Positions 3,510-16,358 of a stretch of 64,000 bases of DNA are shown here, piece by piece. The notes under the pieces are model-generated. The model saw only the letters and a list, made by a program, of their open reading frames with translations, was not told the origin of the DNA and made no database searches. Source of the DNA: Pyrinomonadales bacterium (GTDB lineage: Bacteria; Acidobacteriota; Blastocatellia; Pyrinomonadales; Pyrinomonadaceae); NCBI GenBank assembly GCA_038235165.1, contig JBBSUG010000024.1:2430-66429 (forward strand). Direction: 5' to 3'. Position 1 is the stretch's first letter; each line of letters begins with the position of its first letter. The position numbers and the translations under genes were made by a program.

Positions 3510-3993
3510 GAGCTTCTGCATAAAAATTTAAATCGAGTTCCAAATAAAGCGTTTCATCGTATGGGTTTTGATAATAAGCCGGAACTTGACGAAATCCGTG
3601 CGATTCGTAAATTTTAACGGCTTGTGCCATTTTACCGGGCAGCGTGTCGAGCCGCATTTTTTGGTAACCGATCAAACGCGCTTCTTCGATCACTTTTTCG
3701 ATGAGTTTAACGCCCAACCCCGCACCGCGAAATTCGTCGCGCAGGTAAAGCCGTTTCATCTCGCAAGTGTTTTCTTCTAACTTTCGCAGGGCGATACAAC
3801 CGGCGATTGCGTTGTCAACCGAAGCCAATAAAAGCCGCCCGTCCGGTTTCGCGTACTTGCCGGGTAAGTTGGCAACTTCCGCTTCAAACCCCTGAAAACA
3901 AATATCGAGATTGAGCCATTTTTCGTATTCGCGGAACAGGCGGCGAATTTGTTCGATTTGTTCGGCGTTCTCAGCCTGAAAAATTTTGATCAT
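3499..3993 (-). CDS. GNAT family N-acetyltransferase
   Basis: Acetyl-CoA binding motif RGAGLGVKLIE in the typical GNAT beta4-alpha3 region. Overlaps ribE by 4 nt. Confidence 0.8.
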   Translation of the reverse strand: MIKIFQAENAEQIEQIRRLFREYEKWLNLDICFQGFEAEVANLPGKYAKPDGRLLLASVDNAIAGCIALRKLEENTCEMKRLYLRDEFRGAGLGVKLIEKVIEEARLIGYQKMRLDTLPGKMAQAVKIYESHGFRQVPAYYQNPYDETLYLELDLNFYAEARTK

Positions 3994-4640
3994 ACAAAGC
4001 CGAGGTCGTGCAGTTTTTCCATCGTGATGTTTTCATTTTTCTTTTCCGCTTTGCCGTAAAGCAGTATTCGTTCGACGTATTTGGCGATCACGTCAACTTC
4101 CAAATTGACCGCCGCACCGTTTGGTAGACTCGATAAATTCGTCAATTCCCACGTTTTCGGAATCACCGCGATTTCAAAATAGTCGTCTGTCAAATTTGCA
4201 ATCGTCAGCGAAATTCCCTCGACCGAAACCGAACCTTTTTCAACCAGATACTGCCGGATTTCCGCCGGAAACGCGACGCGCACCGTCCAGAAATCGCCGT
4301 CCTGTTGCGCCTGCAAAAACTTTCCGCGAGCATCAACGTGACCCTGGACGATATGACCGCCGAGCCGCGTTGCTGGCGTGACGGCGCGTTCGAGATTGAC
4401 CTTCGAGTTCATTTGCAACCCGCCGAGCGTCGAACAGTTCAAAGTCTCCTGCGAAACATCCGCCGAAAACTCATTTGCCGTGATCTTCAAAGCCGTCAGA
4501 CAAACGCCATTGACGGCAATCGAATCGCCCTCGGCAGTTTGGTCGGTAACGATTTTCGCGGCGATTTTTAATTTCGCTCCGCCCGCGTGTTTTTCGAGAG
4601 CGGTAATCTTTCCCAATTCTTCGATAATTCCGGTAAACAT
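3990..4640 (-). CDS. ribE: Riboflavin synthase alpha chain
   Basis: MFTGIIEELG start, duplicated lumazine-binding halves, SIAVNGVCLT, GGHIVQGHVD. Confidence 0.9.
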   Translation of the reverse strand: MFTGIIEELGKITALEKHAGGAKLKIAAKIVTDQTAEGDSIAVNGVCLTALKITANEFSADVSQETLNCSTLGGLQMNSKVNLERAVTPATRLGGHIVQGHVDARGKFLQAQQDGDFWTVRVAFPAEIRQYLVEKGSVSVEGISLTIANLTDDYFEIAVIPKTWELTNLSSLPNGAAVNLEVDVIAKYVERILLYGKAEKKNENITMEKLHDLGFV

Positions 4641-4761
4641 AAAATTCCTTTTTATTTATTCGGCTAAACCTTTTATTTACAATTACTTACAAGTTAATTC
4701 AAGTTGCACAAAAACCTTTATGTATCTAACTATGTAGCCGGTTGCTGCAACTTTGCCTTTT

Positions 4762-5817
4762 TTAGACTGCTTTTGCTTTCCTTTTCTGCATTTGGTTTGC
4801 CGCGTCCTTTTTGATTGATTCCGACGGATGCGCGTATCTTGTCACTTCGTCAAGCGATGAATGCCCGAGCATCGAAGCCAGGGTTAAAAGATCAACTCCG
4901 TTTTCTAAAACCCGCGTCGCAAAAGTATGGCGGCAATCATACATCCGAAACTTTAGGTTTGCCCGTGTTATCGCAGTTTGATGTTGATCGTTTAGCTGAT
5001 AAGTGGACGTTTCGCCGTCGCGGTCGCCTTTCGGGAAAAGACATTCCCCGGTGAAGCGGTCAATTCTCAATTTCAAAATCTTTGTTGTCCGGTCCGACAA
5101 CCAAACTTTTCGATTTGACGATTTTGTCTTACTGCCGACGATCTGCAAAAAACCTTGTTCAAGATTAACATTTTGACGCTTCAATTCGTAAACCTCACTT
5201 GGACGCATCCCGGTTGCCAGCATCAAAGCGGCGGCATCTTGAAGCGGCTGTGGACAAGCTAACAGGTAGAGTTTTTCTTCGTCGTCTGAAATGACGTGAA
5301 AACTTCTCTCATTCGGCGCAAGCTGTTTTATATCACGCGCCGGACTCTTACTTAAAACGTCCTTTGACACCAGCCGTTTGAAAATTGTTTTCAGTGCAAT
5401 CAACTCTAAATTGACCGTATCACGGGTTACGGGTTTGCCGGTCTTTTGCGAAGTTTGCCGGGAACGCCAACGGATAAATTTCTCTACGTCTTTCGGTTCG
5501 ATGCGGTCAACCTTTGTTTCTTTGAAGTATATTTTCAAAGACTGGCAAGAATATCTGATACGGACAAATGAATTCGGCTTTTGAGCGTGTTCGACTTCCG
5601 ACATTTTCAAAAAGTCTTCGACCGCGCGGCTAAACGCCGGTGCTTTTTGTTTCGGTTTGATTCCGATCTTACCCAAAGCAAGCTGCGTGCGATATGCCGA
5701 CTCAACCGTCAAAGCATCGCGTTTATTGGTAACTTGCGAAGACTTTTGAATCAATTCGCCGTTGAAGTAAAACTTAAACCACCAGTATTTTGAATTTTCC
5801 CGTTTGAATAATGACAT
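4762..5817 (-). CDS. Tyrosine recombinase / phage-type integrase
   Basis: N-terminal SAM-like domain (WWFKFYFNG). Catalytic residues in LATGMRPSEV (R), HTFATR (HxxR) and LGHSSLDEVTRYAH (Y). Start taken at MSLFKRE. Confidence 0.9.
   Translation of the reverse strand: MSLFKRENSKYWWFKFYFNGELIQKSSQVTNKRDALTVESAYRTQLALGKIGIKPKQKAPAFSRAVEDFLKMSEVEHAQKPNSFVRIRYSCQSLKIYFKETKVDRIEPKDVEKFIRWRSRQTSQKTGKPVTRDTVNLELIALKTIFKRLVSKDVLSKSPARDIKQLAPNERSFHVISDDEEKLYLLACPQPLQDAAALMLATGMRPSEVYELKRQNVNLEQGFLQIVGSKTKSSNRKVWLSDRTTKILKLRIDRFTGECLFPKGDRDGETSTYQLNDQHQTAITRANLKFRMYDCRHTFATRVLENGVDLLTLASMLGHSSLDEVTRYAHPSESIKKDAANQMQKRKAKAV
4763..4778. repeat. Left copy of a 16-bp perfect inverted repeat (partner 16151-16166)
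   Basis: TAGACTGCTTTTGCTT here is the reverse complement of AAGCAAAAGCAGTCTA at 16151-16166. It overlaps the integrase stop codon. Confidence 0.85.
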
Positions 5818-5818
5818 T

Positions 5819-6691
5819 TTATTTTTGCTTCCTTTCGTTTTGATAACAATTACATCTCGTATTTGGGCGAATGCACTTCTCACAGTATGGAGTTCTGTCG
5901 TTTTTGTATCTTTGTCTTCTACGCTCCGTATTTATTTGATCTTTATTTTTTTGCACAAACTTTTTCTGTCGCATTGAATTGCTGCATTCTTTACAAAATT
6001 CATTTTCTACGTTTTTGTTTAATCTTTTTAGCCAAAAAAAATCCTTGCAGTTTGAGCAATTCTTAATTCGTCTTATGTCTGCGCTATCACCGATTAAAAC
6101 GTCAAACGGGAAATCGTATGCACCTTTTAGAACCCCATTGACAATGTTGAGCGAGTGAAATCTAAAACTATGCAAAAAGTCTGTTAATTTTGCGCCTCGT
6201 GTGTCTTTCCATTCTCGAATTACTGGTTTGTTTTCTGTTTTGGTTGTTGGATAATTTAGATCACTCAATTCAATAATTTTATGAAGTCCTTCTCTCGCAG
6301 CCGAAGCCGAACTTATTGCTGACGTTAATTCGCGTAGCGGGTTGAACCAGTGTTCAGAGCGTTCATAGCGAGAGGCTCGCTCGCCCCGCTCAAATTCAAC
6401 CCAAGAAACTTCCCATTTTTGCGGATGCGTCTCCGACATAATTTCTATCGTTTCACCATCCAGAAAAGCTAACAATTTTGGGCAATGATTGAAAAAATCC
6501 TTTGGCAGAGTTTGAGTAAGTTCGGCAAATCTTCTTTTGGCTTGTTCTTTAGTTTTGGCTGCAAAAAGATGCTCTATGCCAATTTCGGACGCTAACGAAT
6601 GAGGGAAGCCTTTAGGCAATGAGTTTGCCTGATTTATGACTTCGCCTATCTTCGGCGGGCATTCAGAAATCTTTTCTTTGGTTTTTGGCAT
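5819..6691 (-). CDS. Hypothetical 290-aa protein with Cys-rich basic C-terminus
   Basis: AT-rich ORF whose stop lies 1 nt before the integrase ATG. C-terminus has CSNCKDFF...CKECS...CEKC...CNC plus Lys/Arg runs. No family recognised. Confidence 0.55.
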   Translation of the reverse strand: MPKTKEKISECPPKIGEVINQANSLPKGFPHSLASEIGIEHLFAAKTKEQAKRRFAELTQTLPKDFFNHCPKLLAFLDGETIEIMSETHPQKWEVSWVEFERGERASRYERSEHWFNPLRELTSAISSASAAREGLHKIIELSDLNYPTTKTENKPVIREWKDTRGAKLTDFLHSFRFHSLNIVNGVLKGAYDFPFDVLIGDSADIRRIKNCSNCKDFFWLKRLNKNVENEFCKECSNSMRQKKFVQKNKDQINTERRRQRYKNDRTPYCEKCIRPNTRCNCYQNERKQK

Positions 6692-6834
6692 AACGCTTAT
6701 TTTCCCTAAATAAAAAATAATGACTAAAGTGCAAACCGCAATTACTTGATAAGTCTCAATATATCTCTAAAATACATCATAGATGCTTTAGAAAGCAGTG
6801 TCAATTTATGCGTTATACCAAATAGAGAAATTAA

Positions 6835-7044
6835 ATGTTAGAAATTATTGCAGAAAAAAATAGCAGAGTTGCGGTTTCGGTTGACGAAGCCGCGAAAATC
6901 AGCAGTTTGAGCAAGCCGTTTTTGCGAAATGAAATCCGCAACGGCAATTTACCCGTCAAGCGTCCGGGAAATTCCCGGCGCGTCGTAATTATGATGTCCG
7001 ATTTTATGGATTATCTAAATGGGGAAACCAATGAAGCAAAATGA
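6835..7044 (+). CDS. Excisionase-family / AlpA-like HTH DNA-binding protein
   Basis: VSVDEAAKISSLSKPFLRNEIRNGNLPVKRPGNSRRVVI matches the MerR-type excisionase HTH pattern. Divergent from the integrase operon. Confidence 0.75.
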   Translation: MLEIIAEKNSRVAVSVDEAAKISSLSKPFLRNEIRNGNLPVKRPGNSRRVVIMMSDFMDYLNGETNEAK

Positions 7045-7450
7045 AAAAAGCATCGCTGCAAACGATGCCTTTAGAAACCTAACTAACGAACTAAATAACC
7101 AACCAAACAATATGAATAGTAACCCAAATCAACCAATTTTTCAACCACCGCCGATCACCGCCGCGCGAACGAACCGCGAACTGCTCGAATCAACCAAACT
7201 TTCGCGTCTGCCGCGATTGCCGGAACGTCGTCCGACTGCTTTCGACAACACGCCGAAGCCGGTTGTCGTCGTTTCAACTTGCGCCGGGTGCGGCGTTCGT
7301 CTCGATACCGACGATCCGATTCAACAAACATTTACCGGCTGCCGCAAGTGCGTTGGGATTTACGGACGGCTCGACGCGGCGTTTGCTGAAAATGCCGAAC
7401 GTAAAAGAAAAGAATTGCTCGAAAAAATGACGGGGGGTTTCAGCCGATGA
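7031..7450 (+). CDS. Hypothetical protein with CxxC...CxxC
   Basis: ORF overlaps the excisionase stop. Contains CAGCGVRL...GCRKC. Start (7019 or 7031) is uncertain. Confidence 0.45.
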   Translation: MKQNEKSIAANDAFRNLTNELNNQPNNMNSNPNQPIFQPPPITAARTNRELLESTKLSRLPRLPERRPTAFDNTPKPVVVVSTCAGCGVRLDTDDPIQQTFTGCRKCVGIYGRLDAAFAENAERKRKELLEKMTGGFSR

Positions 7451-8118
7451 ACCGCCAACCATTAACCGAAACGGATTATCAATATTTTGCCGAAAGTTTC
7501 TGTTCGCGTGAATTTGTCGAATTATTCGGCATTTTCCGCGCGGGCGATGAAGACGCGGCGGAAATGCTCGGACGGAAGCGAAATGCTTCCGTTAAATGGG
7601 AATCGGTTGCTTTCCCGCATTACGACACGAACGGAAAAATAACCGAATACTGCTTCAAACCCGAGAACCCGGAAACGGAAACGCAGCCGGACGGAACGAA
7701 AAACCCGAAATACAAATATCTTTTTCCGCCGGGACGCGGCGGCATTCTTTATTTTTCACCAACCGCCAACAAACAACTATTCACCGACATTTCAAAACCG
7801 CTCGTCATTACCGAAGGCAAAAAACAACTGATCTCACTGACAAGAGTTGCCACAGGCGACAACCCGCAGGCGACGGACTGGCACTTTTTGCCCGTTGCGA
7901 TTAACGGCGTTTGGGGTTGGCGGAACAAAGCGACGGGCGGCGTGATTCAACAGTTTGACGAAATAGCTTTCCAGTTTCGCGCTGTTTATCTAGTCTTCGA
8001 TGCCGACGTTTCGACTAACTGGCAGGTTCGCTATGCACGGCAACAACTTGCCTTGGAACTCCAGCGGCGCGGCGCGATTGTTTATCTTGCAAATTTAACA
8101 CCGGGAGGTTTGAAATAA
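7447..8118 (+). CDS. Toprim-domain (DUF3854-like) protein, putative primase component
   Basis: Toprim signature: Glu in VITEGKKQ and DxD in YLVFDADV. ATGA overlap with the upstream ORF. Confidence 0.6.
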   Translation: MNRQPLTETDYQYFAESFCSREFVELFGIFRAGDEDAAEMLGRKRNASVKWESVAFPHYDTNGKITEYCFKPENPETETQPDGTKNPKYKYLFPPGRGGILYFSPTANKQLFTDISKPLVITEGKKQLISLTRVATGDNPQATDWHFLPVAINGVWGWRNKATGGVIQQFDEIAFQFRAVYLVFDADVSTNWQVRYARQQLALELQRRGAIVYLANLTPGGLK

Positions 8119-10094
8119 TGAATAAAGACGGAATTGACGATCTACTCGGAAAATATGAAACCGATCACGGCGCAAAGACGGCAGTCGAAAAAGGACTGGA
8201 ACTGATACTTACCGGCTCACAGCTTTTTAACGGCGAAATGCTGGCAACGATCAGTACGGGCAAGATCACACTCGGAGCGGCGGCGGCAGACCGCAACAAA
8301 TGCCGACTGACAGCAAAGACGGCGGACGGCGGCGCGGCGGCAATGGATGTCTTCAACCCGGCAGATGCGGCGCGGCGCGAAAAGTTTATCAAACAAATCA
8401 ACGATGTCGTTCAATTGTCCGACGATGAAAAAAGACAGATTGCCGCCGAACTGATAAATCTGGCAGACGCGGCGGACTCGATTTTCAAAGTCGGATCGGA
8501 AACGAAGTCGAAAAAAGCACAGGGCGAACCGGTTGAAGTGTCATTCAAGGTTCTGACAGACGGGCGCATCATTGAACAGATTCGCAGCGGGTTTGCGGTT
8601 TACAACCCGGAAACCGGCACACACGAAATCACGGATGCCGTCGAAGACGCAGACGGCACAACTTACGCGCCGGTTGACGACGAACTTTTTACGAAACAAG
8701 GCGGCATTCAGCTTGCCGAACAACTAACCGAATACGGCACGGAAACGCAATTGATCGAAGATGTCGAAAAATATCTGTCTTCCTATCTCGATCTGAAACC
8801 GCTGTTTTTGAGATTGACGGCGTTTTATATTTTGTTCACTTACATTTTCGATTCAGATTCGATTCTCGAACTTTCATATTTGAACGCGACCGGCGACCCC
8901 GGCAGCGGCAAAAGTCGTTTCGGAATGACGGTTTGTTACGGCTCACATCGCGGACTTTCGCTTGTCACGCCAAGTGCGGCAAGTCTTTACCGGATCGTTG
9001 ATAAATTCAAGCCGACTTTGTTTCTTGACGAATTCAACTCCGATGCCAACTCTGACGACGGCGCGGCAATCATTCAGATTCTAAATGCCGGCATTCAAAA
9101 GACAGCACAAATTCCCCGACAGTCCGCAACCGCTGACGGGAAATATAAAACAGAAATGTTTGATGCTTTTTGCCCGAAAATTATCGGTTCGCTTAAACAA
9201 AGCGCGTCGAATGCTTTCAACTCCAGATGTATCGAAATTCAAATGGAGCGAACGCAGCGGAATGATATTCCGCTGCGCCTTTCCCGGAAGCATTTAAGCG
9301 ACGCGCTGAATATCCGTAACAAGTTGACGTTGTGGAGACTTCGGAACATCTCAATTGACTTTGACACCCGACTTGACCGGGCGGAACGTGAATTGAGAGA
9401 AAGCGGAATTATGCCGCGCTCGATACAAATCAACATTCCGCTGTTCGCGCTGATCGTGGACGATAAATTGAAACGCGAATTCATTTCACTTCTGAAAGGG
9501 CGTGATGAAGTGTTGACCGATGAAAAACAGCGGACGTTTGACGGCGAACTTATTCAAACGCTTCACACGATTCTTTTTGATGTCGAAGAAAGCGGCGCGG
9601 CGGTCTGGAGCGATCAAGTCGGCGGAACGCAACCGGCGGACGGCGAACTTTGCGAACATTTACGAATCGAAAAAATAGTTTCGATGCTTAACGACGGACT
9701 AAACCAAAAAGACCATTTCAACAGCCGGTATATCGGAAAGAAAATCAGCAGTTTCGGTTTGAGATCGTCACAAATTCTGAGGAGAAAATCCGATTATCAC
9801 AAAAAATCAGCCATTCGCTTTGACGCGCACCGGCTGAAAATAATATTCAAAAATTACGGCTTACCCACACCCGGCGATTTTCAATTAGACCAATTAGACC
9901 AAAACGCTAACATCAATATTGACAGCTACTTAACCCGGTCTAATGGGGAAACGAACGGAAACGGCAATCAAACGCCAATAGACCAAGCTAAACCCAATGG
10001 ACACAGCACTAACAGCGATTGGTCTAATTGGTCTAATGAAAATACGGGAAACGGGGTGAAAGCGGCAAAAGTGTTAGTTGATGAGGTAATGTGA
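8118..10094 (+). CDS. P-loop NTPase, putative replicative helicase (P4-alpha / VirE-like C-terminal module)
   Basis: Walker A GDPGSGKS and Walker B TLFLDEF. Position after the Toprim gene. Low-complexity Asn/Gly/Asp C-terminal tail. Confidence 0.65.
   Translation: MNKDGIDDLLGKYETDHGAKTAVEKGLELILTGSQLFNGEMLATISTGKITLGAAAADRNKCRLTAKTADGGAAAMDVFNPADAARREKFIKQINDVVQLSDDEKRQIAAELINLADAADSIFKVGSETKSKKAQGEPVEVSFKVLTDGRIIEQIRSGFAVYNPETGTHEITDAVEDADGTTYAPVDDELFTKQGGIQLAEQLTEYGTETQLIEDVEKYLSSYLDLKPLFLRLTAFYILFTYIFDSDSILELSYLNATGDPGSGKSRFGMTVCYGSHRGLSLVTPSAASLYRIVDKFKPTLFLDEFNSDANSDDGAAIIQILNAGIQKTAQIPRQSATADGKYKTEMFDAFCPKIIGSLKQSASNAFNSRCIEIQMERTQRNDIPLRLSRKHLSDALNIRNKLTLWRLRNISIDFDTRLDRAERELRESGIMPRSIQINIPLFALIVDDKLKREFISLLKGRDEVLTDEKQRTFDGELIQTLHTILFDVEESGAAVWSDQVGGTQPADGELCEHLRIEKIVSMLNDGLNQKDHFNSRYIGKKISSFGLRSSQILRRKSDYHKKSAIRFDAHRLKIIFKNYGLPTPGDFQLDQLDQNANINIDSYLTRSNGETNGNGNQTPIDQAKPNGHSTNSDWSNWSNENTGNGVKAAKVLVDEVM
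9884..10037. repeat. 19-bp perfect inverted repeat with tandem 9-mer arms, lying inside the helicase 3' coding region
   Basis: ATTAGACCAATTAGACCAA (9884-9902) pairs with TTGGTCTAATTGGTCTAAT (10019-10037). Extra degenerate copies GGTCTAAT and CAATAGACC lie in between. Confidence 0.9.
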
Positions 10095-10381
10095 TGAACC
10101 AAAAAACACAAAAGAAACAATTGAACCGGCAGCTTCAAGATTACGGAGAATGGTTATTCTCCGAACTTAAAAAGCAGGGCATTGATCTTGAAGTTGTCGG
10201 AAACGGTTTGCGCGTCAAAGGCGAAATCACGGCGGCGCAAAAAGAGTTTATCCGTATCTGGAAACGGCAATTGATCGAAGCCGCATCGCCGAAATGCCGA
10301 AACTGCAATTTAGCGATGGATTTAATTGAAGACGGCAAACTTTGGTTTTGTCCGGTTGGCTGTGAAAGCAGGGAAAAATAA
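10091..10381 (+). CDS. Small hypothetical protein with C-terminal zinc-ribbon-like motif
   Basis: ATG overlaps the upstream stop. Contains CRNC...CPVGC. Confidence 0.5.
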   Translation: MMNQKTQKKQLNRQLQDYGEWLFSELKKQGIDLEVVGNGLRVKGEITAAQKEFIRIWKRQLIEAASPKCRNCNLAMDLIEDGKLWFCPVGCESREK

Positions 10382-10384
10382 TTT

Positions 10385-10558
10385 ATGAATACCGAATTTA
10401 CAACGATGCTTTACGACCGCAAACACTTGGTTATCCGAAACGAAGCAGACCGAAACCCGCTGGTAATTTGCGAATGTTACTTGCTCGAATCCGCCGAAAC
10501 GATCTGCGCGGCGTTAATTGAACTGGAAAAACAAAAAGGAGAAAAAACTAATGACTAA
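10385..10558 (+). CDS. Small hypothetical protein (57 aa, below the track cutoff)
   Basis: My own translation: MNTEFTTMLYDRKHLVIRNEADRNPLVICECYLLESAETICAALIELEKQKGEKTND. Tightly packed, overlapping the next ATG in ATGACTAA. Confidence 0.35.
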   Translation: MNTEFTTMLYDRKHLVIRNEADRNPLVICECYLLESAETICAALIELEKQKGEKTND

Positions 10559-11129
10559 CGAAACGAAACAACAAATAAAAGAAAACGAAATAACCGTCAA
10601 TCGCTGGAAGGCGGAAAGACTTGCCAAAATTCTAAATCAAAGCGTCGTTTTGCCCGACAACACGGCACAGGCTTTTTATAAAATAGTCGGTGAATTTACT
10701 GAAGGTTTCAGAATTGAAACCCTGCGCGAAAAGATGGATGCGGAAATGCCGAAACTTTGGGATTTTATGCCGCTGCCGAAAAATGAAGACGAATGGACGG
10801 AGTATTTCAATGATTTACTAACCGACTGTGCGGCTCAAGAATGTCTGACGATAAAAGAGGTCTGGCAGATAATCGGATACGACCCGGCAGAATTTGAGAA
10901 ACTGCGCGGCAACGGCTTTTCCTTTGTTGAGGCGTTTGGCGAATTGCATTTGAAGGAAACCGCCGAACAGACGGACGCGCGAACAAAAAACCTTGCACCC
11001 GAACAGTGTCAAGAACGGATTGAACACGCGGTAAATCAGTGGCGGGAAGGTCAAAAAGAGGTTTCGAGACTGCAAAACAACGCATTTAATAAGTTTGGCG
11101 TGAACATCCGTTTAGAGAACGGATTATAG
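10551..11129 (+). CDS. Hypothetical protein
   Basis: ORF in operon context, start taken at MTNETKQQ. No motif recognised. Confidence 0.5.
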   Translation: MTNETKQQIKENEITVNRWKAERLAKILNQSVVLPDNTAQAFYKIVGEFTEGFRIETLREKMDAEMPKLWDFMPLPKNEDEWTEYFNDLLTDCAAQECLTIKEVWQIIGYDPAEFEKLRGNGFSFVEAFGELHLKETAEQTDARTKNLAPEQCQERIEHAVNQWREGQKEVSRLQNNAFNKFGVNIRLENGL

Positions 11130-11199
11130 GAATAGTCGGAGCAAGGCTTAACCAATAAAACGCGCTCAAATCGAAGGCGAAACGGACGGAATAACTCAA

Positions 11200-11634
11200 A
11201 TGGCAGAAAACACGAAAACAAACGGCGAACAGACGGCGAACCGGCAAACAAACGGCACATTTGCGCCCGGTCACAAACTCGGCAAACGGTTTCAGAAAGG
11301 CGAAACGGGCAACAAAAACGGACGACCGAAAATCACGAAATTGACCGACGCACTCCGGGAACAACTCGCCGAAGCCGCCCCGGACGCGCCCGAAGAAACG
11401 ATTGCCGAAGTGATCGCGCGGGCATTGATTCGGGAAGCGAAATCCGGCAACGTGCAGGCGATTCGGGAAATCGCCGACCGCACCGAAGGCAAACCGAAAC
11501 AGGCGATTGATGTTGACTTTCAAATTTCGGACTGGCGAACGATGGCGAAAAATTATTCATTAACGGAAAACGATGTTATCAGAGAAGCAAAATTACTCAT
11601 TGCAGAATCCGCTGCTGATTCAAGCGGCGAATAA
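11200..11634 (+). CDS. Terminase small subunit-like protein (DUF5681-type)
   Basis: FQKGETGNKNGRPK motif and AKSGNVQAIREIADRTEGKP, typical of small terminases. Lies directly upstream of TerL. Confidence 0.65.
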   Translation: MAENTKTNGEQTANRQTNGTFAPGHKLGKRFQKGETGNKNGRPKITKLTDALREQLAEAAPDAPEETIAEVIARALIREAKSGNVQAIREIADRTEGKPKQAIDVDFQISDWRTMAKNYSLTENDVIREAKLLIAESAADSSGE

Positions 11635-11680
11635 CGCAATCAAAAAACGGATTGACCGGGAAAGAGGCGATGCCGTGTTG

Positions 11681-12394
11681 ATGGCGGAACGCGCAGGGAT
11701 TATCCCCGACCCGTGGCAAGCCGACCTTTTGCGGTCCGACGCGAAGCAAATGGTTTTGAACTGTTCGCGGCAAAGCGGCAAATCAACGGTTAGTTCGGTG
11801 TTGACGATTCACCAGGGGATTTATAAAGACAATTCGCTAAGTCTGCTGCTGTCGCCGTCGCTTCGTCAATCGCAGGAATTATTCCGCAAAGTGCAGACGG
11901 TTTACAACAATCTGCATTCGCCGATGATTCCGCAAACAACCGACGAATCAGCATTGAGAATGCAGTTTGACAACGGTTCGCGCATTATCGCACTGCCGGG
12001 AACGGAAGCGACGATCAGAGGTTTCAGCGATGTTGACTTACTGATTATTGACGAAGCATCAAGAGTGTCGGACGCTCTGTACCAAAGTGTCAGACCGATG
12101 CTTGCCGTGTCCGGCGGGCGCATCATTCTACTGTCAACGCCGTTCGGCAAACGCGGTTTCTTTCATCAGGAATGGACGGAAGGCGAAGACTGGCAGCGCG
12201 TGAAAATTACCGCCGACGAATGCCCGCGCATTGATCAGGGATGGTTAGAGCGCGAACGGAAAATGATCGGCGATTGGTGGTTTTTGCAGGAGTATTTCTG
12301 CGAATTTGTTGAAACAAACGATCAGGTTTTTAGCTACGACGATATTCAAGCGGCAATCAGCGACGATCTCGAACCGCTTTTCCCAATGGAGTAA
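11681..12394 (+). CDS. Terminase large subunit, ATPase domain only
   Basis: Walker A CSRQSGKST, Walker B LLIIDEAS, coupling motif LSTP, and QEYFCEF at the domain end. Stops at TAA 12392-12394. Confidence 0.75.
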   Translation: MAERAGIIPDPWQADLLRSDAKQMVLNCSRQSGKSTVSSVLTIHQGIYKDNSLSLLLSPSLRQSQELFRKVQTVYNNLHSPMIPQTTDESALRMQFDNGSRIIALPGTEATIRGFSDVDLLIIDEASRVSDALYQSVRPMLAVSGGRIILLSTPFGKRGFFHQEWTEGEDWQRVKITADECPRIDQGWLERERKMIGDWWFLQEYFCEFVETNDQVFSYDDIQAAISDDLEPLFPME

Positions 12395-12404
12395 AACAAC
12401 AAAA

Positions 12405-13091
12405 ATGATAAACAGCCGATACGAAGACGAACAAACAACAAAAACCGAAAAATCACTATTTATCGGTTTGGACTTGGGTCAAGCGCAAGATTTTTCTGCG
12501 CTCGGGATTGTCGAATGCGTCCGGTCAACTACGACTTACGACGAAACATTCGACATCACAGCGTTAAACTGCATTCATTTGCAGCGGTGGCAGCTTCGCA
12601 CACCATACCCGGCAATCGTCGCCGACGTGGTGAAAATGGTCAACGGGTTGAAACCGTTTCAATCGCCGGATTATAAACCCGTCTTAGCCATTGACGCGAC
12701 GGGCGTCGGTGCGCCGGTGGTGGATTTATTCAAACGCGAAACGATCAACGCCGAACTAAAGCCGATTCAAATTGTCGGCGGCGCGAACGTGTCCGAAGAA
12801 TTCGGCACAACCCGCGTACCGAAACGCGATTTAGTCAGCGTCGTGCAAGTTGCGCTGCAAAGCAAAACTTTGAAAATCAGCGGCAAACTTCCCGAAGCCG
12901 CGACGCTTTCGCGGGAACTGGAAAACTTCACAGTCAAAATCACGGATGCGGCGAACGACGTGTACGGCGCGTGGCGCGAAGGAACGCACGACGATTTGGT
13001 GCTTGCCGTCGCCTTGGCTCTGTGGACGGCAAACAAAACACCGTTTCGAATAACGGAGCGGTCAAAGCAACTTTTCAGCAGCTTAGTTTAA
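12405..13091 (+). CDS. Terminase large subunit, RNase-H-like nuclease domain only
   Basis: IGLDLGQAQDFSAL, AIDATGVG and GTHDDLVLAVALALW are the catalytic acidic motifs of the TerL nuclease. Reading frame differs from the ATPase ORF, with a 10-nt gap. Confidence 0.75.
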   Translation: MINSRYEDEQTTKTEKSLFIGLDLGQAQDFSALGIVECVRSTTTYDETFDITALNCIHLQRWQLRTPYPAIVADVVKMVNGLKPFQSPDYKPVLAIDATGVGAPVVDLFKRETINAELKPIQIVGGANVSEEFGTTRVPKRDLVSVVQVALQSKTLKISGKLPEAATLSRELENFTVKITDAANDVYGAWREGTHDDLVLAVALALWTANKTPFRITERSKQLFSSLV

Positions 13092-13194
13092 TACAAGATG
13101 CAAATGAGTTTGTGGCAAATTTTTGTTACAAACACCAACAACCAACCAACCGGCGAACGCGCCGAAATTTAGAAAATTTAGGGAGAAAAGACAA

Positions 13195-13371
13195 ATGGCA
13201 GAAGAAGCAACAAATAATAGTATCTATGACAAGATTCGCGCCGCCGCCGTCGAAAGGCGAAATGCGCGAACCAAAGAAAAAGAAAAAGCCGACGAATTTC
13301 TTGCCCGGGCAAGAAACAGCGAAACCCCGCTTAACGAAGTAAACCGAAGAATGAGAGGAGAAAACAAATAA
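13195..13371 (+). CDS. Small basic hypothetical protein
   Basis: GGGAG Shine-Dalgarno sequence before the ATG at 13195. Lys/Arg/Glu-rich. Confidence 0.4.
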   Translation: MAEEATNNSIYDKIRAAAVERRNARTKEKEKADEFLARARNSETPLNEVNRRMRGENK

Positions 13372-14021
13372 TGAAAGCACTTGAGATTAAATCCGAAATT
13401 GATAAGACACAATCAAGAATCGCAGAACTGGAAACGGAACGGGAACAGCAGACAGCAACCGTTGAAGCGGCTGAAAAATCATACATTAACGGCAAGGCGG
13501 ACATTGCCAAACTCAATGACGCGCAGGGCAAGCTAAGCCTCTATGAGCGCACTATTGAGTCATTACGGGCAACTTATCAAAGGTTAAAATCTGCTTTTGA
13601 AAGTCAGTCGGAAGTTGAAACCCGACGCGAACAAATAAAGCAAATGACGGCAGCGGCGAACGAAGTCGGACCGCTTGTTAATAACTACTTAAAAACTAGA
13701 GATGAATTTCACGAAATTGTGAAAGGCTACGCTGAAAGGCTAATTGCCGAAGGTGAAATGTATCGAAGCAAGCAAGCGCAGTATCGTCAGATCGTCGGAG
13801 AATTAGAGCCAACTGCCGAAGAAATCCAAACAACCGGGCTTGACCAGCAAACATTAACGAGAGCGGGCGCGACTTACTTCAACCATCCGCCGCTTGAATA
13901 CGGCGAACCGATTCAGCTTGCCGAAAATCTGCTTGCCGCAAAAACTAACAAAGCGGAGCAGGCAAAAAGAGCGGCGGCATTTAGGGAAGCAAGCGCGAAG
14001 GCAATTCACAGTAACTTTTAA
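13371..14021 (+). CDS. Coiled-coil hypothetical protein (216 aa)
   Basis: Heptad-like, charged sequence throughout. ATGA overlap with the previous ORF. No family recognised. Confidence 0.55.
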   Translation: MKALEIKSEIDKTQSRIAELETEREQQTATVEAAEKSYINGKADIAKLNDAQGKLSLYERTIESLRATYQRLKSAFESQSEVETRREQIKQMTAAANEVGPLVNNYLKTRDEFHEIVKGYAERLIAEGEMYRSKQAQYRQIVGELEPTAEEIQTTGLDQQTLTRAGATYFNHPPLEYGEPIQLAENLLAAKTNKAEQAKRAAAFREASAKAIHSNF

Positions 14022-14046
14022 GCAAAAATAAGGAGACAAGACAACT

Positions 14047-14484
14047 ATGACGCAGGAAGAAATACAAATACAAAATGCACAAAATGCACAGGACATTATC
14101 ACGCTCGATTATCCGAAATGGAGTTTTCAACAAAGACGGGCGAACCGCTCCGACGATCACGGACTCTGGCAGCAGGAACGCGACCGGGTGCTTTCCCGGC
14201 AGCAAATTGACAACCAATCCGCCAAAAGCAGTTATCTTGCCGATCTTGAAGCGAAACGGGCGGACAAACGCGCCGAACACGAAGCCGAACTTGACCGGCA
14301 GCTAGAACCGCAAAAGCAGACAATGATGCGCGACTGGATGGCAAACCATCCGGGCAAAACAGCCGCCGACTTTGAAAAGGATGCCTGGACGCATTTAAGG
14401 CAAAATTTAGTCGAACAGCGTGAAAGTGAAATGACACGGGCGACCATCGAAAGCGAACGGGCAAGCGGTAGATACTCGCTGTAA
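14047..14484 (+). CDS. Highly charged hypothetical protein (145 aa)
   Basis: GGAG lies 10 nt upstream of the start. Glu/Arg/Gln-rich. Confidence 0.5.
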   Translation: MTQEEIQIQNAQNAQDIITLDYPKWSFQQRRANRSDDHGLWQQERDRVLSRQQIDNQSAKSSYLADLEAKRADKRAEHEAELDRQLEPQKQTMMRDWMANHPGKTAADFEKDAWTHLRQNLVEQRESEMTRATIESERASGRYSL

Positions 14485-14597
14485 ATTATCGCAGCGCAAA
14501 AAATAAAATAGCCGTCGTCATTACTTTGCCGGTAAATAAATTATCTTTTACCCCGGCAATTCATACCAAAACGACCGCTATGTTACCCCCGACGAAA

Positions 14598-14630
14598 AAG
14601 CCGCAAGCGTAAAAACTTGCGGCTTTATAT
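14598..14630. terminator. Terminator hairpin between convergent modules
   Basis: AAGCCGCAAG / CTTGCGGCTT 10-bp stem, A-run before and T-rich sequence after. Confidence 0.6.
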
Positions 14631-14633
14631 TTC

Positions 14634-14649
14634 CGTTCCAATTGGAACG
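14634..14649. repeat. Perfect 16-bp palindrome CGTTCCAATTGGAACG
   Basis: Self-complementary with no loop, in the convergent intergenic region of the element. Confidence 0.85.
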
Positions 14650-14653
14650 CTTT

Positions 14654-14893
14654 CTAAGTATGGTGTTTCAAGAATTTCTTTTTGAACCCGGTGAAAAACT
14701 TTTTAATTCGCGGATTGCCCGCCGCATAATCAATAATCGAATTGATTTCTTTAATAACTTCCTTGCTGTTCACCGCATATCTTGTCTGACAGTCAGCAAG
14801 ATAATTGACGATCCCAGTTTCCTGTTCGGCGGTCAAATTAACGGTTTCGGTTTTAGCAGTATCGGCTGCAATCGGTTCAATATTTGTAGTCAT
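14654..14893 (-). CDS. Hypothetical protein (79 aa)
   Basis: ORF with GGAG upstream, last gene of the leftward operon. Confidence 0.5.
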   Translation of the reverse strand: MTTNIEPIAADTAKTETVNLTAEQETGIVNYLADCQTRYAVNSKEVIKEINSIIDYAAGNPRIKKFFTGFKKKFLKHHT

Positions 14894-14943
14894 TTTATGT
14901 TATTCTCCTATGTGTGAATCAAATCATTCGTGGTTTGAAAGAG

Positions 14944-14985
14944 AGGCTTAGGTTGCTGTAACTTCCTAAGCCTTTCGTTTTTATT
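14944..14985. terminator. Hairpin with T-run (attenuator or terminator-like)
   Basis: AGGCTTAGG / CCTAAGCCT stem followed by TTCGTTTTTATTT on the + strand. Lies between two co-oriented minus-strand ORFs. Confidence 0.35.
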
Positions 14986-15295
14986 TAGTTCGTTCGATGT
15001 AGATTGCACAGAGCCGCGCGGCGGCGCGATGGCGGCACGGGAAGCCGTTTGCAAACGCTTTGCACTGACAAGTTCCGTTTGCCGTATAAATCTCGCTGGA
15101 AGTATCCGACATCATTAAAAGACTGTGTGAGTCGTGATCGTATGTCATATACGGATTCGATTCAATTTCGACCGTTGCCTTGGCAATCGCGTTAATCCAT
15201 CGTTGCCCGTTTTTCGATGCCGGGTTGATCTTTGCGATAGATTCGGCGGCAATTTGTCCTAAAACTTCGTGGTTGATCGTTGAAAATGTGTTCAT
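14981..15295 (-). CDS. SWIM zinc-finger protein
   Basis: CQCKAFANGFPCRH matches the CxCx(n)CxH SWIM signature. Confidence 0.65.
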   Translation of the reverse strand: MNTFSTINHEVLGQIAAESIAKINPASKNGQRWINAIAKATVEIESNPYMTYDHDSHSLLMMSDTSSEIYTANGTCQCKAFANGFPCRHRAAARLCAIYIERTK

Positions 15296-15366
15296 TGTTT
15301 TATTCCGTCCTTATTCGAGTTGGTGTTTCTACAAGTGCGGATTCCGCACTTGTAGAGGGTTTATGT

Positions 15367-15525
15367 TTAGTTGGCGTTGATGATTCGTTTGGCTTGTTTG
15401 AGAGCGTCACCGGTGAACTTATGCGCCCAAACTGATACGCCGTCCGCATCGTTGATAAATATTTGTCTGCCGTTGTAGCTTTCAAATACCGTGACTGTGT
15501 AACCTTTGTATGTAAAATTTTTCAT
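15367..15525 (-). CDS. Small hypothetical protein (52 aa, below the track cutoff)
   Basis: My own translation: MKNFTYKGYTVTVFESYNGRQIFINDADGVSVWAHKFTGDALKQAKRIINAN. GGAG upstream. Preferred over the overlapping 15300-15485 ORF. Confidence 0.35.
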   Translation of the reverse strand: MKNFTYKGYTVTVFESYNGRQIFINDADGVSVWAHKFTGDALKQAKRIINAN

Positions 15526-15580
15526 CGTTGCTAACTCCGTTTTTTAGATTCGCTAATTTCTTAACTTCACTAATAATACT

Positions 15581-15673
15581 ATTCTTTAGGGATAGCTATC
15601 AAGTCTTTAAGAATGATTTTAATTCTTTAGGGCTACTTTTTTATTCTTTATTGCACTTATATTATTCTTAGGG
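15581..15673. promoter_or_regulatory. Array of direct repeats ATTCTTTAGGG (operator-like) in the divergent switch region
   Basis: Copies at 15581-15591, 15622-15632, 15643-15653 (ATTCTTTATTG) and 15664-15673 (ATTCTTAGGG). The last three are spaced 21 bp apart. An inverted variant lies at about 15604-15614. Confidence 0.55.
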
Positions 15674-15687
15674 TATGATTGTAAAGT

Positions 15688-15888
15688 ATGAACAGTGGTG
15701 AACTTAAAAAAAGGCGTGTAAGCATTGGATTAACGCAGGCAGGGCTGGCTGAAAAAATTGGGGTTGTTCCGAATACGGTTTCCCGGTATGAAACTGATTC
15801 GCTCGAAATTCCTATTTATATGGAATTAGTTTTAGAGGCTCTGGAAAGTCGGAAAATAAAACAGCTTCAAGCGACATCTGAAAAATAA
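15688..15888 (+). CDS. XRE-family HTH transcriptional regulator (Cro/CI-like)
   Basis: LTQAGLAEKIGVVPNTVSRYE is the canonical HTH_3 motif. Confidence 0.8.
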   Translation: MNSGELKKRRVSIGLTQAGLAEKIGVVPNTVSRYETDSLEIPIYMELVLEALESRKIKQLQATSEK

Positions 15889-15892
15889 ATAT

Positions 15893-16075
15893 ATGAATAA
15901 AAAGCTATTCCCGGTTCAGGTCTTTATCTTAATCGTTTTAGGTGCAACCGGATTATTCCGATTCTCCGAGGGTGTGCGAACGGTTGACGTGATCGGATTA
16001 TTTGCAAGCGGTATGGTTTGCGGCGCGGCGTTGGTCTGGATCGTCGTCGCTCTCAAAGGTAAGTCGAAGCAATAA
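15893..16075 (+). CDS. Small two-TM membrane protein
   Basis: Two hydrophobic helices (VQVFILIVLGATGLF and GMVCGAALVWIVVAL). Lies 4 nt after the XRE gene. Confidence 0.5.
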   Translation: MNKKLFPVQVFILIVLGATGLFRFSEGVRTVDVIGLFASGMVCGAALVWIVVALKGKSKQ

Positions 16076-16150
16076 AAAAATAAAAAAAGCCGCCGGTTCT
16101 GACAAACCAGCGACTTCGATCTTTGATAACTAAATATCTAAATACCCTTT

Positions 16151-16166
16151 AAGCAAAAGCAGTCTA
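16151..16166. repeat. Right copy of the 16-bp inverted repeat (partner 4763-4778)
   Basis: AAGCAAAAGCAGTCTA. Confidence 0.85.
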
Positions 16167-16358
16167 TCAAATTCTTTTGACCGACTGCAACCGCCTGTAT
16201 CTGATAATGTATCTGTTACCTGTTACTTTGGAGTGATATGCAGTGACAAAAGATAGTCCTTTGTTCTTTGTATATCACTCTATAACACTTGGTAAGTATC
16301 AGTAAATAAAGGCTTAAAAGATTCCGGTAAACATTTTGTGTAGTCCTTTTCTTCAATA

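Follow-up and report, generated by a model that had tools for sequence, protein, structure and literature searches.

A mobile element with its own split terminase and no capsid genes at the ribE locus of a Pyrinomonadales bacterium, and a family of relatives in bacteria and methanogens

To our knowledge, all of the well-studied phage satellites that lack capsid genes depend on the large terminase subunit (TerL) of a helper phage, redirected by a small terminase subunit (TerS), an Rpp protein or a cos site. In the SatelliteFinder scheme, terL marks the phage-inducible chromosomal islands that form capsids (cfPICIs) and not the phage-inducible chromosomal islands proper (PICIs; PMC10085698), while the elements called VEIMEs were reported with TerS only (PMC9618062). 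The single published precedent found in the literature searched for the arrangement described below is NitKor-E1 of Ca. Nitrosopumilus koreensis, an integrated element with a tyrosine integrase in which adjacent TerS and TerL genes are the only Caudovirales-like ones; its authors (Krupovic et al. 2019) regarded it as enigmatic and a probable relic, and noted that no terminase had been identified in non-viral mobile elements (PMC6563490). Two plasmids that figure below, pSR11 and pSR14, were published only as small plasmids that "contain terminase" (PMC6060240). Here we describe an 11,694-bp integrated element from a Pyrinomonadales bacterium (GCA_038235165.1, contig JBBSUG010000024.1, forward strand 2,430-66,429) that encodes a replication module and a terminase and has no recognizable capsid genes. 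The window, the whole stretch analysed, is 64,000 nt long; positions are window coordinates, and L-numbers denote relative loci fetched for comparison.

A first-pass annotation of this DNA had stated that no described satellite class is known to carry both terminase subunits while lacking capsid genes. Within the literature searched that claim holds: a full-text search, which covered few subscription journals so that an earlier description is possible, returned no capsid-less satellite class with both TerS and TerL.

Mobile elements of 10-17.6 kb form a widespread family, to which this element belongs as an intact, integrated copy. The family core comprises a gene for recombinase or partition functions, a primase-helicase replicon, a protein in TerS position and a TerL split into ATPase and nuclease genes, with no portal, capsid or tail-tube gene. 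The features of the present copy, which occupies positions 4641-16334, are collected in Table 1.

Table 1. Features of the integrated element and its borders (window coordinates; ORF, open reading frame; HTH, helix-turn-helix; E, E-value; pLDDT, per-residue confidence of an AlphaFold2 model)
Feature	Position	Strand	Evidence and remarks
attL (left attachment site) core	4627-4640		exact 14-bp direct repeat ATTCCGGTAAACAT
Tyrosine integrase	4762-5817	-	PF00589 E 7e-24; phrog_1 E 5e-58
290-aa Cys-rich protein	5819-6691	-	conserved C-terminal double Zn-ribbon and basic region
Divergent promoter region	6692-6834		between the leftward 290-aa ORF-int and rightward operons; sigma-70-like consensus matches only
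HTH_17 (Xis/AlpA-type) protein	6835-7044	+	PF12728 E 3e-6; phrog_66 "excisionase and transcriptional regulator" E 4e-4
143-aa ORF, CxxC...CxxC	7019-7450	+	homologs in L004, L005, L138; no family matches
Toprim-type (DUF3854) primase-like protein	7447-8118	+	PF12965 E 9e-8; phrog_16213 "DNA primase" E 4e-4
658-aa P-loop NTPase	8118-10094	+	motifs found by inspection: Walker A GDPGSGKS, Walker B LFLDEF
Iteron cluster	9885-10036		spans 152 bp within the NTPase gene, at its 3' end
Three small ORFs: 96 aa (Zn-ribbon CxxC...CxxxC), 57 aa, 192/203 aa	10091-11129	+	no family matches
DUF5681 protein	11200-11634	+	PF18932 E 1e-11; overlaps TerL ATPase start by 62 nt
TerL ATPase, stand-alone, 273 aa	11573-12394	+	phrog_7579 E 1e-61; Terminase_6N E 4e-8
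TerL nuclease (RNase H-like)	12405-13091	+	phrog_27743 E 8e-42; Terminase_6C E 2e-3
58-aa basic ORF (82 aa from TTG 13123)	13195-13371	+	called in Logan contig; homologs in L091, L138
216-aa all-helical coiled-coil protein	13371-14021	+	AlphaFold2 pLDDT 85; helices 3-39, 45-145, 178-215
145-aa charged ORF	14047-14484	+	last gene of the rightward operon; homologs in L003 (61%), L100
Leftward operon	14654-15525	-	52-aa ORF 15367-15525, SWIM protein 14981-15295, 79-aa ORF 14654-14893
SWIM zinc-finger protein, 104 aa	14981-15295	-	PF04434 E 3e-5
Operator-like motif TTCTTTAGGG	15581-15650		two exact copies, 15582-15591 and 15623-15632, 41 bp apart, upstream of XRE
XRE-family HTH regulator, 66 aa	15688-15888	+	HTH_3 E 2e-7; 18 PHROG regulator/repressor families
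XRE regulator plus 60-aa hydrophobic ORF	15688-16075	+	
attR (right attachment site) core	16321-16334		second ATTCCGGTAAACAT copy; orphan ribE start, 24 nt past the Kir-channel gene stop (16359)

Evidence for the borders comes from the 14-mer ATTCCGGTAAACAT, the sole exact repeat that brackets the element. Its attL copy makes up the opening 14 nt of ribE, an intact riboflavin synthase gene (3990-4640, minus strand, which reads ATGTTTACCGGAAT), and beyond attR lies Kir, the gene for an inward-rectifier K+ channel. In L169, which holds the closest Kir homolog found in a metagenome scan (69% protein identity, from a different species), ribE stands directly after Kir: the junction reads TAA, the Kir stop, then ttt and ATGTTTACAGGAAT, and continues uninterrupted into ribE (69% identity) after a gap of only 3 nt. 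This adjacency, together with the 14-bp repeat, identifies the 11,694 bp as an insertion at the ribE start codon, judged by synteny with the orthologous locus of another species. The synteny is evidence for an empty form of the site. The discrete, integrase-bounded element of the first-pass annotation stands, but its limits of 4722-16211 give way to the slightly wider ones set by the repeat, which place the SWIM/XRE module inside the element; its gene list was borne out, ORF listing and Pfam and PHROG scans finding every gene at essentially the same coordinates. No tRNA-type attachment (att) site is involved, as ARAGORN found no tRNA in the window, and Rfam recorded no RNA family anywhere in it.

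The integrated state was also assembled in public Logan contigs of the source run; look-ups by exact protein sequence gave the source sample and no other. That assembly breaks inside the integrase gene (~5497) and between the rightward and SWIM operons (14941-14948), giving contigs L002 (window 5497-14941) and L001 (14948-18576). The breaks may be branch points at which related element variants in the sample share modules.

The terminase genes follow one another near the end of the rightward operon. The TerL ATPase matches PDB entry 4zni, a 274-aa chain named "Phage terminase large subunit", at E 6e-9, and its motifs are intact (Walker A CSRQSGKST, Walker B LLIIDEAS, C-motif LSTP). The nuclease, whose own ATG lies 10 nt past the ATPase stop, matches entries of the same name, 5m1f and 5tge, at E ~0.02 (0.016 for 5m1f) and retains the acidic motifs GLDLG, IDATG and HDD. 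Division of TerL over two genes is no oddity of this copy. Homologs of the ATPase number at least 7,997; in the best-matching 120 clusters, at 73-80% identity, the proteins are all 255-288 aa long, and in nearly all of the ~150 IMG/VR and GTDB loci compared, wherever both domains could be placed, an ATPase gene for ~250-290 aa is followed by a separate, adjacent nuclease gene for ~200-260 aa, portal-bearing phages included. A frameshifted TerL pseudogene was ruled out, since the two-gene layout, the 10-nt spacer and the separate ATG are the norm among thousands of homologs. Going by this distribution, the split is an old, ancestral trait of a phage terminase family and neither damage nor a satellite peculiarity. 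That TerL so commonly occurs in nature as separate ATPase and nuclease proteins is relevant to models of domain cooperation in packaging. Some relatives vary the theme: the nuclease gene is present in two tandem copies in L089 (10818-12284), L022, L045 and L135 and in three in Methanospirillum purgamenti (L120, 10680-12706), and in L123 it stands upstream of the TerS-position and ATPase genes.

The DUF5681 protein is a candidate small terminase by its position. Its relatives, 65-79% identical, are always directly upstream of TerL, and in the 47.6-kb phage MW202647.1 a DUF5681 homolog likewise directly precedes and overlaps TerL; searches against TerS structures in PDB and TerS families found no match. 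The ratio of nonsynonymous to synonymous divergence (dN/dS) against six relatives, calculated with dS at or near saturation, was 0.09-0.16 for the ATPase, 0.09-0.17 for the nuclease and 0.18-0.27 for DUF5681. The terminase genes are under strong purifying selection, and TerL is the best-conserved protein of the element.

The family emerged from an alignment-based scan, a single-sequence scan of IMG/VR having given one distant locus. Three members with TerL 74-78% identical (L003, L004, L005) have the same layout, with 9.8-17.6 kb between chromosomal genes. The shared order runs from int and its neighbor ORF through HTH_17, primase/helicase (DUF3854 plus NTPase, or PrimPol plus DUF3987), small ORFs, DUF5681, TerL ATPase and TerL nuclease to one or a few small ORFs, and at the right end a divergent operon of S24 or SWIM type is accompanied by XRE. 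Family-wide conservation does not extend to the accessory ORFs. Dozens of GTDB loci come from Acidobacteriota, Chloroflexota, Gemmatimonadota, Actinomycetota, Firmicutes and isolates of Xanthomonadales, and archaeal hosts include Methanospirillum, Methanothrix and Methanoculleus; all told, the family spans six bacterial phyla and the methanogens. One Pyrinomonadaceae metagenome-assembled genome holds four different, diverged copies. Eight members (L003, L090, L093, L097, L112, L113, L127, L151) are flanked by att repeats of 13-58 bp, 10,986-17,611 bp apart, several of these repeats being tRNA 3' ends. The TerL ATPases of some methanogen (L120, L116, L123, L132, L137) and Firmicutes (L114, L118, L133, L147, L158) elements are 64-71% identical, and the two groups share primase-helicase clusters, which suggests fairly recent transfer between methanogens and anaerobic Firmicutes, across domains. 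Two of these carriers are cultured isolates, which argues against a binning artefact.

Extrachromosomal forms exist as well. In the IMG/VR contig L009 (12,458 bp), a terminal repeat of 127 bp signals a circular assembly of 12.3 kb; the contig encodes a D5-like primase-helicase, an SprT-like protein, a TerS-position ORF, a split TerL and a MerR-like protein, with no integrase or capsid gene. In cultured strains of Salinibacter ruber, the family core is carried by the plasmids pSR11 (NC_014026.1, 11,229 bp) and pSR14 (NZ_CP030359.1, 14,894 bp), whose genes specify an HTH regulator, a P4-family primase-helicase, a TerS-position ORF, TerL ATPase (44-51% identity), nuclease, small ORFs and ParA; plasmid relatives are annotated "phage/plasmid primase, P4 family". 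Both Salinibacter plasmids have an ORF of 608-628 aa after the terminase genes, with no function assigned, and a ParA-like gene is also found in L087 of IMG/VR (4045-4803).

The first-pass annotation had also reported a lack of portal, capsid, protease, tail and lysis genes, and for this copy Pfam and PHROG scans of the element's ORFs agree, with no match to any such family. Portal hidden Markov models (HMMs) matched nothing in the window. After the terminase come only the ORFs of 58/82, 216 and 145 aa, ~1.4 kb of coding sequence and none of it portal-sized. The only capsid-sized ORFs are those of 290 and 216 aa, and AlphaFold2 models with structure searches revealed neither a portal nor an HK97 fold in them. 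Across the family, portal HMMs found nothing in any of the 41 GTDB loci that extend 4 kb or more downstream of TerL, and a PHROG spot-check of 10 large downstream ORFs turned up one portal (L140), the rest being integrases, a tape-measure-like protein, a helicase and unknowns.

That said, the absence of virion genes does not extend to all close relatives. L089 (15220-19168) and L090 (12815-16115) encode a TMP_3 tape measure (E 1e-33) preceded by an HK97-gp10-like gene, and a 1056-aa ORF of L003 (13423-16593) matches annotated tape-measure proteins. These tape-measure and gp10-like genes lie within the att repeats and are accompanied by no portal, capsid or tail-tube gene. ORFs of L116 and L039 match tape-measure PHROGs directly, and L045, L102 and L120 likewise contain ORFs that match proteins of L089/L090, L003 or L116; the window copy, L004, L092 and L093 are without tape-measure or gp10-like genes. 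On this pattern, the lineage looks like a reduced siphovirus that kept selected morphogenesis genes. It would be unusual for a satellite to bring its own tape measure.

Beyond the observed anatomy, integration, family conservation, purifying selection and circular and plasmid forms, we infer a life cycle whose induction, iteron replication and packaging steps are read from gene content. The best-supported reading, which we think fairly probable, is of a satellite that depends on a helper for procapsids and tails and provides the terminase holoenzyme itself. As the repeat and synteny show, the tyrosine integrase inserted the element at the 14-nt start of ribE, after which the Zn-ribbon protein and the XRE/SWIM module would keep it silent. 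When a helper phage infects or is induced, a signal from it would cause the Xis-type HTH protein and the integrase to excise the element, and the Toprim protein and P-loop NTPase would replicate it from the iterons. Finally, a holoenzyme of DUF5681, TerL ATPase and TerL nuclease would recognize and cut element concatemers, dock on the portal of a helper procapsid and package element DNA. The outcome would be a satellite needing helper heads and tails, not helper terminase. The element is about a third as large as the 35-42-kb phages whose TerL is of this family, in accord with either small capsids or trimers packaged by the headful.

In the main rival reading, the terminase would instead serve something other than encapsidation. 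The element would then be an integrative or plasmid replicon that spreads by other routes and employs TerS and TerL to process its own concatemers, or to interfere with invading phages by cutting or mis-packaging their DNA. Interference with helper packaging is common among known satellites, and TerS has been discussed as an agent of it (PMC9618062); moreover, ParA plasmid members are stably maintained in cultured Salinibacter, and the tandem duplication of the nuclease (two to three copies) is reminiscent of conflict systems. We regard this explanation as somewhat unlikely. PADLOC gave no defence family, and the TerS position, ATPase and nuclease are kept together with motifs intact, as in genuine phages where they adjoin a portal; concatemer resolution alone needs no translocating ATPase, and interference is in any case compatible with self-packaging. 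The first-pass annotation had offered as its alternative a deletion-decayed prophage, that is, a siphovirus stripped of head and tail genes whose terminase has no current function. The terminase family is clearly phage-derived, with proteins 45% identical in phages Riverbug and MMP17 that have portal and head genes downstream, and the tape-measure genes of L089, L090 and L003, with gp10-like genes in the first two and a siphovirus-like order, suggest reductive evolution. Decay of this copy is nonetheless contradicted by the conservation of the family and very improbable. The reduced layout recurs with intact att repeats in many independent elements and phyla, at 10-17.6 kb; dN/dS is ~0.1 at saturated dS; catalytic motifs are intact; one genome holds four diverged copies; and circular and plasmid forms exist. 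Portal-less TerLs, moreover, form clades of their own: on average-linkage clustering of TerL ATPases, the clade of the window element contains 10 portal-less and no portal-bearing loci, and the cluster at 55% identity or more contains 37 portal-less against 5 portal-bearing loci, several other clades being purely phage. Such clustering argues against a recent phage remnant.

At the other extreme, the element could be a minimal autonomous virus or particle producer, with its shell proteins hidden among the small ORFs or supplied by a domesticated locus elsewhere, like that of a gene transfer agent. Eight of its ORFs are without annotation, and IMG/VR classed related 10-12-kb contigs as viral. 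This we consider highly improbable, given that so little coding sequence follows the terminase, with no portal-sized ORF in it, that the 290-aa and 216-aa models are confident and neither HK97-like nor portal-like, and that the accessory ORFs vary from member to member.

Several points weigh against a helper-dependent satellite. The rest of the 64-kb window is without phage-like genes and contains no helper prophage. The assignment of DUF5681 as TerS is positional only, and the empty-site comparison uses a 69%-identical orthologue of another species. Tape-measure and gp10-like genes in relatives are unexplained by a model in which heads and tails are simply stolen, and stable plasmid forms persist without integration and perhaps without any phage. 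The survey of relatives used a crude ORF caller and limited portal HMMs, and at least two IMG/VR loci first called portal-less (L079, L084) are phages.

Should the satellite reading prove correct, the portal would be the element's sole point of dependence on the helper, from which a broad helper range is predicted; competition for procapsids would be a new mode of interference, and a new route of gene transfer would exist in soil Acidobacteria, many other poorly studied phyla and methanogens. For the family as a whole, we see roughly balanced prospects for a new, cross-domain satellite class (at least six bacterial phyla and methanogens) that brings its own split terminase and sometimes a tape measure, parasitizes only procapsids and tails, and exists in integrated and plasmid forms. 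If so, these elements would overturn the view of the terminase holoenzyme as confined to autonomous viruses and would be the first candidate satellites of archaeal head-tailed viruses. The family is large, and its cultured carriers make the hypothesis directly testable; candidates among them are Salinibacter ruber M8 (pSR11), Thermovorax subterraneus DSM 21563, Lysobacter sp. CFH 32150, Novilysobacter erysipheiresistens RS-LYSO-3, Cognatiluteimonas sedimenti and Methanospirillum purgamenti.

The replication module pairs the Toprim-type protein with the 658-aa NTPase, which has no Pfam, PHROG or PDB match and is presumed to be the replicative helicase partner. The two are fused in L004 as a single protein of 837 aa. 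NTPase homologs occur in 9-11 loci, methanogen and Firmicutes elements included, and other members exchange the NTPase for PrimPol plus DUF3987 or for D5-like proteins. The iterons within the NTPase gene consist of the 9-mer TTAGACCAA, present twice on the plus strand and twice inverted, along with one near copy; 5 of the 16 matches to it in the window (at most one mismatch) fall within the cluster. The same region includes an inverted repeat of 24 nt that is 92% complementary. The iteron cluster is a candidate replication origin.

Among the small ORFs, those of 96 and 57 aa have homologs in L004, L089, L092 and L138. The 216-aa protein is modeled as a long helical hairpin with no Foldseek match below E 0.07 in PDB or BFVD. 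It has 46 homolog clusters and no homologs in the phage collection; within the fetched loci its HMM matches only the clade of this element, and in L003 the homolog is located upstream of TerS. The suggestion that it is Sid-like did not gain from these searches, which yielded a confident helical model and no significant match, although a scaffold-like, Sid/CpmB-like or interference role is possible. The 145-aa ORF, which has no family or phage match, is followed by a GC hairpin and T-run at ~14588-14634.

In the leftward arm, the integrase ORF is open to a GTG at 5883, with the ATG at 5817 (MSLFKRE...) the likely start, and integrase homologs of 52-68% identity hold the same position in L003, L004, L089-L091 and L138. 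The 290-aa ORF stops 1 nt short of that ATG, a gap that points to co-transcription, and its homolog adjoins int in six relatives. Across 52 representative clusters the protein has the motif RRIxxCxxCxxFFWxKR...CxxCxN..RQK...FCxKCxRPxxKCxC. It has no Pfam, PHROG or PADLOC match, and its AlphaFold2 model (pLDDT 83; predicted TM-score 0.77) has no significant counterpart in PDB. The motif resembles the CGNR/ABATE zinc finger, a lead only: the top Foldseek hit, 3h0n (DUF1470), reached only E 1.5, and no member of the alignment matches the CGNR or ABATE Pfam families. By its Stl-like position next to int, facing the divergent promoter, the protein is a candidate regulator.

The divergent promoter region contains the two best sigma-70-like matches in the whole element, TTGACA-17-TATGAT on the minus strand (6804-6776, 11/12) and TTGATA-16-TAAAAT on the plus strand (6746-6773, 10/12), and the HTH_17 gene opens the rightward operon. 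At the other switch region, SWIM homologs stand beside XRE in L089, L090, L092, L093 and L138, and in other members a Peptidase_S24 protein takes the place of the SWIM operon. PADLOC assigned no defence family to the SWIM operon, the unannotated ORFs or the large ORF of L003. A one-mismatch copy of TTCTTTAGGG lies at 6704-6713 (minus strand) in the int/Xis promoter region. The motif hints that a single regulator may control both switch regions; its copy number is within chance, being equalled in 39 of 100 shuffles.

The integrase clade appears, from its flanking repeats, to target the 5' ends of housekeeping genes. The repeats that flank L090 and L003, whose integrases are 52-55% identical, contain the start codon of dnaX and read ATGTC(A/T)TATCA(A/G)G (at 2613 and 20224 in L003, 2965 and 18969 in L090); with ribE in the window, the duplicated target in this clade is 13-17 nt and includes the ATG. 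An element with a different integrase (L005, 2128-4322; 402 aa, ~24% identity; TerL 74% identical) also adjoins a ribE orthologue (69%), at its 3' end and in the opposite arrangement, which may reflect a recurrent target or coincidence. In the window, ribE now lies behind element DNA (4641-4761) that has an AAAGGA ribosome-binding site and is co-directional with int, and its expression in the lysogen probably depends on element promoters. Just inside attR, a strong terminator-like hairpin (16086-16117, minus strand) would block read-through from Kir.

How, then, does the element compare with described systems? Like PICIs, including the Staphylococcus aureus pathogenicity islands (SaPIs), which are 10-15 kb and integrate site-specifically, it has an integrase with a specific att site, a regulator and int divergent from a Xis/AlpA-type HTH gene, then a primase-helicase replicon with iterons and a TerS-type gene near the end of the rightward operon; it too is about a third the size of its candidate helpers' genomes. 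PICIs use the TerL of the helper and by definition have no terL of their own, whereas here both TerL domains are intact as two genes; no recognizable Stl, cpm, ppi or rpp homolog was found in the element. With cfPICIs it shares possession of TerS and TerL (PMC10085698), in the form of DUF5681 in TerS position and a split TerL. Unlike the element, cfPICIs encode capsid, portal, protease and head-tail connector, and borrow only tails.

Satellite P4, of much the same size (~11.6 kb), likewise combines integrase, AlpA-type regulator and alpha-type primase-helicase, of which the element's versions are functional analogues, and it can be integrated or a plasmid, both of which states occur in this family (pSR11, pSR14). 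P4 relies on the terminase of P2, acting at a cos site, and encodes sid, psu and delta; the element brings its own terminase, and Pfam and PHROG searches found no match to those three genes in it, a very remote Sid-like function of the 216-aa ORF being possible. A complete tailed prophage, with portal, HK97-fold capsid, tail and lysis genes, is present neither in the element nor in the 64-kb window.

Among cultured phages, the TerL relatives nearest to it are those of Riverbug (Thermus) and of MMP7 and MMP17 (Meiothermus), 45-46% identical over the ATPase domain. These differ as 33-34-kb phages with a fused TerL of 415-417 aa, followed by portal (annotated or matching the Mu type), head morphogenesis, protease, major head and tail genes, and uncultured 35-42-kb IMG/VR phages with a split TerL likewise have a portal directly downstream (SPP1, HK97, Mu or Phage_portal_3). 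NitKor-E1, likened here by description only, is a single case for which no replication module or family-wide conservation was described. The plasmids pSR11 and pSR14, at 11.2 and 14.9 kb, have the same core and no capsid genes, and differ in being episomal, with ParA replacing the integrase.

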